Assembly: GCF_017348835.2 (NCBI RefSeq)
Contig: NZ_CP071375.1
Origin: Escherichia coli
GTDB taxonomy: Bacteria > Pseudomonadota > Gammaproteobacteria > Enterobacterales > Enterobacteriaceae
Direction: 5' to 3' (one strand)
Length of the DNA stretch: 64,000 nucleotides
Positions 15,001 to 18,000 of this stretch are shown here, in pieces (position 1 is the first letter of the stretch; every line of letters starts with the position of its first letter). A program made the position numbers.

Positions 15001-18000
15001 AGAAGCAGCTGGAAGGGGTACAGGACTATATCCGCACTCAGTGCCTGAACTAAGTTTTGCTGATGCGCCGTATCGTCGCCGTATTCCTGCATTAACAGAG
15101 ACCGCAGCCCGACAGGGAGACTCCTCTGCGAGAGTGTGCGGGGATAATCAAAAACGATACACACCGGGGTTTACCGCGTAAACGGAGCGCGGCGTTCTCC
15201 CCTCATGGTCGCCCGTCCGGTGCGATGGTGGAAGAAACTGGAATCTGTTCAATAAAAAAACTGCCGTGTTGGAGTCACAGCAGTAATGTACTGATTGGGT
15301 AGAAGATTATTATTGTTATGCTTTATTTTTATTCTATATGGCTGATTATTTCAATTCGGAATTAATACAGCTAATGTCTGTGATTTTTTATAAATTCAGC
15401 AATATAAAGAAATAGTTATATGAACAGCCATCGCAGAGCATACTGTGTATCATTCTTTTTTATAGTCAACTGACGGGCATATTTTATGTCTGCTGCCAGC
15501 TCCCGGCGGCAAGATTCAATGACCCACGCAGAAAAATTTTCTGAACCTTTCTGGTCAAGAGCGATGTTAATTTGTTCAATCATCTGGTTTGGAAATCGGA
15601 TGTTGCGGGTTGTTGTTCTGCGGGTCCGGTTTTTCGGTGACATTTTCTTTCCTCTGGTGACAAGCTATATGGCGAGGATTTTACATGGCCGTGCTTCGTA
15701 CGTTACCGGGCAGAATCAAAACTCTGAACACCCGGCGGGTGAATGTCCTGAAGGGTGAACAGCGTCGGGTCAGTGGTAGTGCCCGGGTTTCCCTCAAGCG
15801 TCGTATCTGGCTGAGGGATGCCGGACAGTGCTGTCTCTGTGGGCGTGTGGTTGACCTTTGTGACAGTGAACTTGAGCACCGCATTGCACTTCAGTTCGGT
15901 GGTGGTAATGAGGAGACGAATCTCTGGACGCTCTGTACCGAATGCCATCGACAAAAGTCTGCTCGTGAAGCGGCGAGTGGTATGCCAGACCCGACGCTGC
16001 CGGAGGTGTCCGGAGGTCATGGCAGGGCAGACGATATCATCGGACTGTGACCCGCCCCGGGGGGGGGATCATCCGGCGAAAAAAACGATCGCCCCGGACA
16101 CCGCCCCCCCTCTCACGCAGAGAAAAAATTCCCGTTTCAGGGCAGTTAACATGTTAACTGGCTGTCCGGGCATTTTTGCGGTTTTTATCTTTATTATTCA
16201 GTTTGTTGTGCGGAAAAAATGTTAACTGGCTTTTTCAGCAAATGTTAACCAGGCAGCAGTTAACATTTGCGGCATGAGACGCCGGGAAAAATGGGCTGAA
16301 CCATACCCGGCTGAGTGCGTTCTGGACCCGGGAGGAGGCTGTGCTGACAACGCAAAAACGAAAATTTGCGCTGGCGCTCATGTCCGGGAAAAACAAAACA
16401 GCGTCAGCCATTGCCGCTGGTTATTCGGCGAAGACCGCCTGGGTTAAAGGCTCGCAGCTGGCAAAAGATCCGGAGGTGCTTGCGTTTATAGCCCGTAAAC
16501 AATGCGAGACGGTGGAGGTGGATGAGGTTCCTGTTTACCGGCAGAAAAAATCAGAGCAGGAGGATAAACCCCGTCGCCGTGAGGCGGCTGCAATACCACA
16601 GCCGGATGAAAACAATCCGGAGATGCCACCGTCCGCGGTGATGTCTCCTGGTATTGAATATATGGAGGATGGTCTTCCCGATCCGGTGAAAGCGATGGGG
16701 CGTCTTCTGGTGGAGAACATTAATACCGACCCCAGGCTGGCGCTGGATGCGGCTTATAAGCTGGCGCAGTTCACGCACCATAAAAAAGGGGATGCCGGTA
16801 AAAAATCGGCAAAAGGTGACGCGGCGAAAAAAGCGGCTAACCGTTTTGCGGTGCCACCACCACCCCGCCTGGTGGTGAATAATGATAATGAGGGCAACGG
16901 ATGATACCTGTGTGGAGCACGGCCTGCCCGGACTGGGCAGAGCGCCTGAAAAAGGGGCTGTCGATTATTCCGGCTCCGATTTATCCGGACCAGGCTGCAC
17001 ATGCACTGGCGATTTTTAAACAACTGCGAATTGTGGATGCACCGGGTAGCCCGACATTCGGGGAGTCCTGTGCACCGTGGGTGTTTGACCTGGTGGCGGC
17101 CCTGTTTGGCTCCTACGATGCGCAGACCGGTGTTCGCCATATCAAGGAAGTGTTTATCCTTATCCCCAAGAAAAACAGTAAGTCCACGCTGGCTGCGGGG
17201 ATCATGATGACGGCGCTGTTACTGAACTGGCGGCAGGCGGCGGGCTACACCATTCTGGCCCCGACCGTGGAGGTGGCGGCTAACGCCTTCAACCCTGCCA
17301 GGGATATGGTACGACGGGACGATGATCTGGATGACCTCTGTCAGGTGCAGACACATATCCGGACCATCACCCATCGGGTGACGGACACCACCCTGAAGGT
17401 GGTGGCAGCCGATCCGAATACGGTGTCCGGTATCAAGTCCGTGGGGACACTGATTGATGAACTGTGGCTGTTTGGCAAGCAGTACAAGGCGGAAGACATG
17501 CTACGTGAAGCCATCGGCGGGCTTGCCTCCCGTCCGGAAGGGTTTGTGGTGTATACGACCACCCAGTCGAATGAACCGCCCGCCGGGGTGTTCAGACAGA
17601 AACTGCAGTATGCCCGGGATGTCCGTGACGGCAAAATTCATGATCCGCACTTTCTGCCGGTGATTTTTGAGCATCCTCCTGAAATGGTGGAAAGCGGGGC
17701 TCACCTGCTGATGGAAAACCTCGCCATGGTTAACCCGAATCTCGGTTATTCGGTGGATGAGGCCTTTCTGTACCGGGAGTACCGTAAAGCCCGGGAGGCT
17801 GGTGAGGAAGCATTTCGTGGCTTCATGTCAAAACACGCCAATGTGGAAATCGGTCTTGCCCTGCGTTCTGACCGCTGGGCGGGCGCGGATTTCTGGGAGC
17901 AGCAGGGCAGGCGCGTCAGCCTGGACGATATCCTGCAGCGCGCTGATGTGGTGACGGTGGGGATTGACGGCGGGGGCCTGGATGATCTGCTGGGAATGTA

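Follow-up and report, generated by a model that had tools for sequence, protein, structure and literature searches.

A probable cos site with a candidate TerS recognition array in a long-tailed Shiga toxin-type prophage of Escherichia coli

The stretch of DNA analysed here (64,000 nucleotides of E. coli contig NZ_CP071375.1, hereafter the window) includes an intergenic gap of 290 bases (16051-16340) which, as read from the sequence, separates the gene for an HNH endonuclease from terS, the gene for the small terminase subunit. This region very probably represents the cos site of a long-tailed Shiga toxin (Stx)-type lambdoid prophage, in which a cleavage core is combined with a cosB-like array read by TerS. 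The cut position and the type of end were shown in a near-identical phage, and the layout of the array and its apparent co-variation with TerS were shown by sequence comparison. The GTTAAC repeats that make up the array are most likely docking sites for the small terminase. The initial annotation had proposed a candidate cos region between the HNH and terS genes; the open reading frames (ORFs) and Pfam matches bear out this location, and the proposal itself is supported by the cohesive end of phage Lys8385Vzw, the boundaries of its sequence record and an adapter junction in the virome contig L132.

Two modules can be proposed within the region. The first (approximately 16059-16133) would form a core that is independent of the terS lineage, comprising a G-run, GATC, GGACAC, the cohesive sequence CGCCCCCCCT and the box CTCACGCAGAGAAAAAATTCCC, while the second (16142-16266) would form a lineage-specific recognition array equivalent to cosB, with five ATGTTAACYRG sites. 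The helix-turn-helix (HTH) domains of an oligomeric TerS would bind these five sites, anchoring the terminase beside the cut and setting the direction of packaging, and a T-rich spacer would allow both groups of sites to touch one TerS oligomer. The large terminase subunit (TerL), with the adjacent HNH protein, would nick the core with a 10-nt stagger and leave CGCCCCCCCT-3', the proposed division of labour between TerL and HNH being that of HK97. From the orientation of the MT225100 record, packaging would run towards terS, with the array entering the capsid first.

Probable cut position and cleavage core

The cohesive end CGCCCCCCCT, a 10-nt 3' overhang, is placed at 16102-16111 (+ strand) by the PhageTerm result for Lys8385Vzw, the boundaries of MT225100 and the L132 adapter junction. 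In a PhageTerm analysis of the induced Stx1 phage Lys8385Vzw, packaging was classed as cos and the 3' cohesive ends were assigned the sequence CGCCCCCCCT (PMC7946995). The 10-nt cohesive sequence is thus already known; in the searchable literature this is the only relevant paper for it, and the repeats, the spacing of the G-run and the co-variation are not described there. The MT225100 record of this phage ends in ...GACACCGCCCCCCCT / ...GGACACCGCCCCCCCT and starts with CTCACGCAGAGAAAAAATTCCCG, boundaries which place the top-strand cut between 16111 and 16112 of the window and make 16102-16111 the cohesive 10-mer. Consequently, the C7 run (16104-16110), which the initial annotation had noted together with a G9 run (16059-16067), both correctly placed, is the cohesive end itself. 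Given the published 10-nt 3' overhang, the bottom strand would be nicked between 16101 and 16102. The 42,956 bp contig L132, which belongs to a sister clade, opens with the Illumina TruSeq adapter joined directly to CTCATTCG / CTCATTCGTAGAAAAAAT, and this junction is the homologue of the window from 16112 (+1 base) onward; it was the only case found in the scan for left-end adapter junctions. Unique, non-permuted ends at a fixed sequence are accordingly found in the relatives (MT225100, L132 and the PhageTerm class). A scan of viral contigs with a 15-mer from the core returned 43 family members, none of which ends at the cut, with L248 ending 7 nt beyond it. The contig L054 (IMGVR_UViG_2681813226_000009) starts at the equivalent of window position 16111, within one base of the cut, and may represent either a captured physical end or a break in the homopolymer.

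The cohesive 10-mer is polymorphic, with either C or G at 16105 and 16110 among close relatives, and the wider set of 10-mers includes CGCCCCCCCT, CGCGCCCCCT, CTCGCCCCCT, CGCTCCCCCT and CGCCCCCCGT, among others. Genomes carrying up to seven copies of this type of cos may therefore harbour phages with non-complementary ends.

The remaining elements of the core flank the cohesive end on both sides. The G-run (G9; 16059-16067, +), an upstream cos element separated by 8 nt from the end of the HNH gene, has its 3' edge 44 nt before the cut. Across the upstream sequences of 121 distinct relatives it ranges from 5 to 12 G in length, and in 115 of these relatives the last G is 44-45 nt from the cut. 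The run comprises seven G in Lys8385Vzw and nine in the window, the difference always lying on the 5' side, and such variation could derive from slippage, homopolymer sequencing error or tolerated variation. The G-run, which resembles lambda cosQ in position, may serve as a termination or nuclease-positioning element; it is not mentioned in the HK97 literature covered. The Dam site GATC (16087-16090) is invariant in the five-lineage alignment (G37 A38 T39 C40), and GGACAC (16096-16101, +) lies directly 5' of the cohesive end, the 7 nt ahead of the overhang reading (T/C)GGACAC in 101 of the 121 distinct relatives. On the other side of the cut, the left-end box CTCACGCAGAGAAAAAATTCCC with its A6 tract (16112-16133, +) is nearly invariant in all terS lineages, in the island copies described below and in the clade of Salmonella phage FSL SP-016. 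Overall, the lineages share 83-92% identity in the DNA from -60 to +30 around the cut. In a distant-mode search with a 306-base intergenic query, FSL SP-016 matched over the core alone (equivalent to 16055-16158; 81% identity), its HNH protein and TerS N-terminal domain being 61% and 68% identical to those of the window, respectively, and 80 loci of the SP-016 clade (L093-L172) share the pattern of a G-run followed by GGACACCGCNCCCCCT, the cut and CTCAYKCRCAGAAAAAATYCCC.

In LC567822.1 PPompW_132418 (L310 1146-2604), the insertion sequence (IS) ISEc20 of the IS110 family is located inside the cos G-run, at the equivalent of approximately 16063. G-runs occur on both sides of the IS and the upstream lysis-HNH segment is gone, leaving the order Q, tRNAs, IS, cos and terS. 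From this, ISEc20 appears to target poly-G, and such prophages appear to have lost the HNH gene.

Proposed recognition array and its variation among terS lineages

Five copies of GTTAAC occur in the intergenic region (16145, 16153, 16221, 16244 and 16259), while the remaining 63.9 kb of the window contains 23. The GTTAAC-centred repeats and palindromic pairs had been recognised in the initial annotation, which counted four copies instead of the actual five. From a background of 0.043 per 120 bp, the Poisson probability of at least five copies is 1.2e-9, or approximately 8e-5 over all 64,000 positions, and every other 120-bp stretch of the window holds two at most. The corresponding 11-mer ATGTTAACYRG is found at 16142-16152 (-), 16151-16161 (+), 16219-16229 (+), 16242-16252 (+) and 16256-16266 (-), three of the sites being exact and two having one mismatch, and the array extends from +31 to +155 relative to the cut, on its terS side. 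The first two candidate TerS sites, 1 (-) and 2 (+), are joined in CAGTTAACATGTTAACTG (16142-16161; +31 to +50 from the cut) and form a perfect 18-bp palindrome (16143-16160). They are followed by a T-rich spacer of approximately 57 bp between the site groups (16162-16218; GC 0.37), whose phased T-tracts may produce an intrinsic bend, by candidate site 3 (ATGTTAACTGG; 16219-16229, +; +108 to +118) and by candidate sites 4 (+) and 5 (-) (16238-16270), around which perfect 12-nt inverted arms (16238-16249 and 16259-16270) are placed 9 nt apart. No sequence within one mismatch of the IHF consensus WATCAANNNNTTR occurs in 16040-16345. Apart from one singleton change, the GTTAAC cores do not vary among 60 distinct close relatives, although with 1 of 30 columns variable in the cores versus 28 of 229 overall, the divergence is too low to be informative alone. 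A further exact copy of ATGTTAACTGG is located outside cos at 5227-5237 (-), in a stretch without an ORF of at least 80 aa; approximately 0.1 such copies are expected by chance in the window.

A search of IMG/VR for close relatives with the window TerS yielded proteins of 90-99% identity only, and the more distant lineages were reached via protein matches, the upstream DNA being read for each of approximately five terS lineages. All five keep the layout, in which an inverted pair (approximately +31 to +50) is followed by some 55 bp of T-rich spacer, a direct site and a second inverted pair. The repeat motif, by contrast, shifts at every site of a lineage together, from GTTAAC to GTTTAY or GTTACAC. 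In the window and P0014, the motif ATGTTAACTGG / ATGTTAACCAG (CAG variant) accompanies a TerS with YSAKTA(W/R)VKGSQL, while P0034 combines the motif ATGTTAACCACC and six GTTAAC copies with YSGKTARVKGSRL (..GKTARVKGSRL). The P0024 and P0033 lineages have no GTTAAC, their motif being ATGTTTATACC / ATGTTTACAGG (ATGTTTAT/ATGTTTAC) and their TerS reading YS(E/A)KSARCKGSQL, and approximately seven copies of AAAAGTTACAC are found with P0054 and P0055, where the HTH domain of TerS is strongly divergent. In the register of site 3 the other lineages read ATGTTAACCACC, ATGTTTATACC and ATGTTAACACC, and in that of sites 4 and 5 the P0024 lineage reads TGTTTACAGGGCAGCGGTAAACA. TerL is 97%, the core 90% and the array region 72% identical to the window in the P0024 lineage; across the terS lineages, TerL is 87-100% identical, while the sequence around the conserved layout drops to 66-72% identity.

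The variable TerS residues 32, 34 and 35 are located on or beside the predicted helix 33-41, and terS is the only gene adjoining the array in every lineage. In the island copy of L090, with the order AlpA-cos-terS, no HNH, TerL or DUF3950 gene occurs within approximately 1.5 kb. That the motif changes appear to track substitutions in the predicted TerS recognition helix provides comparative evidence for a cosB-like TerS-binding array, since the joint change of dispersed sites and recognition helix argues for an array bound by a protein, rather than for relics or a structural spacer.

The SP-016 clade, found in Salmonella, Klebsiella and Enterobacter, contains an imperfect palindrome, GTAAACATGTTAAC, which spans the terS start 39 nt from the cut (e.g. 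L002 3085-3110). The palindrome of sites 1 and 2 in the window is homologous to it. Binding of TerS at the SP-016 palindrome could also autoregulate the translation of terS.

Packaging genes and comparison with known systems

The genes downstream of the HNH gene, as identified from the ORFs and Pfam, are terS, terL, a protease-capsid fusion and a portal gene. The HNH endonuclease (121 aa; 15685-16050, +) matches the Pfam HNH family above the cut-off (E 5e-6); its gene occupies the same position upstream of cos in the phage relatives and its product is presumed to act as an accessory nuclease in cos cleavage. TerS (187 aa; 16341-16904, +) has a GTG start preceded by GGAGG at 16331-16335 and belongs to Pfam Terminase_2 (35.2 bits versus a cut-off of 26.1). 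Its N-terminal domain is modelled by AlphaFold with pLDDT >90 as helices 4-14, 19-25, 33-41 and 44-56, and Foldseek aligns it to the SF6 G1P DNA-binding domain (4zc3) with a TM score of 0.84, an rmsd of 1.6 A, a probability of 1.00 and 30% identity. Rather than being HK97-like, TerS is an HTH protein of the SF6/SPP1 type; it shows no similarity to HK97 gp1 (best E 1.1). TerL (553 aa; 16901-18562, +), with Pfam TerL_ATPase and TerL_nuclease domains, is of the HK97 type, being 23% identical to HK97 gp2 over 490 columns (BLASTP; E 1e-11), and the HNH protein shows a weak match to HK97 gp74 (E 0.064). The packaging system is a hybrid in its protein components, an HK97-type TerL and HNH being combined with an SF6/SPP1-type HTH TerS. 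The arrangement of HNH and terminase genes had been described as HK97-like in the initial annotation, which is upheld for the gene arrangement, TerL and the likeness of cos itself, and not for TerS.

A gene of the Pfam family DUF3950 (75 aa; 15416-15643, -) is located divergently just upstream of the HNH gene, and its product looks ribbon-helix-helix-like in sequence. Some relatives have it too, whereas others with an identical cos have a different small gene in its place.

The same element is found, at 96-100% identity, in 94 deposited long-tailed Stx phages, including Lys8385Vzw, BP-4795, 2851, 1717, YYZ-2008 and phi330. The longer stretch from HNH to terS is at least 90% identical in all 94 phage records (including JLK-2012, together with BP-4795, 2851, 1717, YYZ-2008 and phi330), and for the listed long-tailed converting phages with Stx1a, Stx2a or Stx2c the identity is 97.5-99.9%. 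Of 5,426 complete E. coli genomes, 1,243 carry the intergenic region, in 2,944 copies overall and at most seven per genome, none of which has an underlying RefSeq annotation. A scan of 15300-16600 against Rfam gave no match, and nothing beyond shuffle expectation was identified in the region when scanned for promoters and terminators.

Similarities to HK97 include the gene order HNH, cos, terS and terL, the 10-nt 3' overhang reported both in HK97 and in Lys8385Vzw, a G9+GATCA element 42 nt before the end as compared to 44 nt here, and AC|CGCC at the likely bottom-strand nick; the right end of HK97 reads GGGGGGGGGATCAAATC...GACCGCCGCCAAA up to the cut. The HK97 TerS reads one 15-bp A-tract site (+15 to +29), threading the DNA through its tunnel (PMC11331095), whereas the window contains a 125-bp array of five putative HTH-type sites. 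The two also differ in the distance from the cut to terS (229 nt here, 49 nt in HK97), in their unrelated TerS and in their barely similar HNH proteins.

The cos of lambda consists of cosQ, cosN and cosB, with the sites R3, I1, R2 and R1 bound by gpNu1. The functional order in the window is like that of lambda cos, with an upstream element, a nick site and a recognition array, and it is an ordinary cos site in kind. As in lambda, an element is located upstream of the nick site, whose sequence differs between relatives. On the terS side lie several repeats, proposed as small-terminase sites, which face in both directions and surround an AT-rich, potentially bendable stretch. Unlike lambda, in which a gpA-type TerL produces a 5' overhang of 12 nt without HNH, a 3' overhang of 10 nt is reported here, an HNH accessory nuclease gene is present, TerS belongs to Pfam Terminase_2 rather than the Nu1 family and the spacer lacks an IHF consensus. 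With the G1P proteins of SPP1 and SF6 (4zc3, 2cmp and 3zqq), TerS shares the N-terminal HTH fold and Pfam Terminase_2. In SPP1, the TerS oligomer recognises a multi-box DNA segment beside the cleavage site. SPP1 and SF6 differ in their headful (pac) packaging with imprecise ends, as opposed to the unique cohesive ends of the relatives of the window.

Alternative explanations and wider meaning

Several observations weigh against the assignment of the region as a cos site with a TerS-read array. The end evidence is drawn from relatives and consists of one PhageTerm report and one adapter junction in a sister clade. The right-end junction scan of viral contigs (GGACAC N0-14 adapter) gave 11 matches, none from this phage family, so that PMC7946995 is the source for an overhang that is 3' and 10 nt long. 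In addition, PMC7946995 prints cos at 50,977-50,953, which exceeds its stated genome length of 50,953 bp; its sequence and the MT225100 boundaries agree, and only the printed coordinates are inconsistent. The co-variation is drawn from approximately five lineages, and its residue-to-base assignments are correlations. The sequence ..TARVKG.. is common to P0034 and P0055, which nonetheless differ in flanks or motifs, indicating that other residues must contribute too. The SP-016 clade, with a similar TerS, has a single imperfect palindrome that overlaps the terS start codon, so that this TerS family does not strictly require an array, and conservation of that palindrome is confounded by coding constraint. 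Finally, the mechanism of the HK97 TerS is quite different, and knowledge of it does not transfer.

Among the 11 right-end matches, GGACAC is joined directly to the adapter at the contig end in four (L179, L180, L181 and L182), the other 14 offsets sharing the remaining seven, and in two of the four, L179 and L181, an HNH-like ORF ends at the junction. A GGACAC just 5' of a trimmed 3' overhang may be a wider trait of HNH-associated cos phages.

The repeats might alternatively be operators for a transcription regulator, such as the DUF3950 protein (15416-15643), controlling terS or the late genes rather than packaging. Repeats in inverted and direct orientation immediately ahead of a gene are a typical form of operator, a small DNA-binding-like gene is located nearby, and the SP-016 palindrome over the terS start codon would suit autoregulation. 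This is nevertheless very unlikely, as no promoter-like site occurs on the + strand, the sole match in the region being weak, on the minus strand, made of the repeats themselves and at shuffle level, and as the repeat motif follows the TerS recognition helix. DUF3950 is, furthermore, nearly identical in the GTTAAC and GTTTAY lineages despite their different repeats, while arrays persist without it in L316, L090 and the SP-016 locus. As the binder of the repeats, the DUF3950 protein was rejected, given the lack of co-variation and its absence from L316, whose array is the same as that of L315. Equally improbable is a cos site whose repeats serve as binding sites for a host architectural protein, HNH or TerL, with TerS reading the A-tract box at +8 to +22 instead. 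In HK97, TerS recognises a 15-bp A-tract element located 15 bp downstream from the cut (PMC11331095), and an invariant A6 box is found at a comparable offset in the window. This box is, however, constant where the TerS N-terminal domains are only 46-85% identical, and could thus not account for lineage specificity, while the window TerS is unrelated to HK97 gp1, the L090 array has neither an HNH nor a TerL gene beside it and no IHF consensus is found within one mismatch.

The repeats could also be non-functional relics, left when approximately 190 bp were inserted between an ancestral palindrome close to the cut site and terS by duplication of the terS 5' end (ATG TTA AC...), with the copies surviving solely through the closeness of the relatives. 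The sequence ATGTTAAC is the terS start region in the SP-016 clade, 39 nt from the cut, the window terS start (GTG CTG ACA) is homologous to it, and close relatives are too alike for conservation to discriminate. Neutral relics would, however, be expected to drift independently, whereas the five sites share a changed motif in each lineage, and the layout is retained while its surroundings fall to 66-72% identity, which makes such an origin a slight prospect. The assignment as a cos site with a TerS-read array is thus preferred.

The TerS paralogues P0054 and P0055 (157 aa), which have a divergent N-terminal HTH, with the C-terminal 70 residues of P0055 being 63% identical to the window TerS, are encoded in TerL-less chromosomal islands (L090 1137-1974, L305, L307 6560-7332 and L308; GCA_034224985.1, GCA_034197145.1 and others). 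One island is flanked by an AlpA gene and a gene for a yejO-type autotransporter, while the other contains, in this order, an HNH-like ORF, terS and a capsid fragment and adjoins the ETT2 type III secretion genes. Each has the same cos core, its own terS and its own AAAAGTTACAC array, and none of the 5,426 complete RefSeq genomes contains the P0054/P0055 island element. These islands may be satellites or remnants that redirect the TerL of a helper. A tentative and somewhat doubtful extension is that the repeats and the TerS helix constitute a natural, exchangeable specificity pair, with at least four motif/helix alleles (GTTAAC-TGG, GTTAAC-CACC, GTTTAY and GTTACAC), and that the TerL-less islands divert the helper TerL and HNH. 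If true, this would represent a satellite strategy based on the replacement of TerS and cosB in HK97-type cos phages, and the allelic series would provide a ready-made genetic system for how an HTH ring reads DNA.

Long-tailed Shiga-toxin phages very probably use the element described here as their packaging signal, and the cut site and core of this element may serve as a marker to orient and delimit these prophage genomes correctly. Polymorphism affects the recognition motifs as well as the cohesive ends, and knowledge of the core and the array would be useful in predicting which co-resident prophages, satellites and cos-bearing DNAs each terminase can package. The terS lineages and their arrays may, in addition, offer a natural allelic series for the debated question of DNA recognition by HTH-type small terminases.

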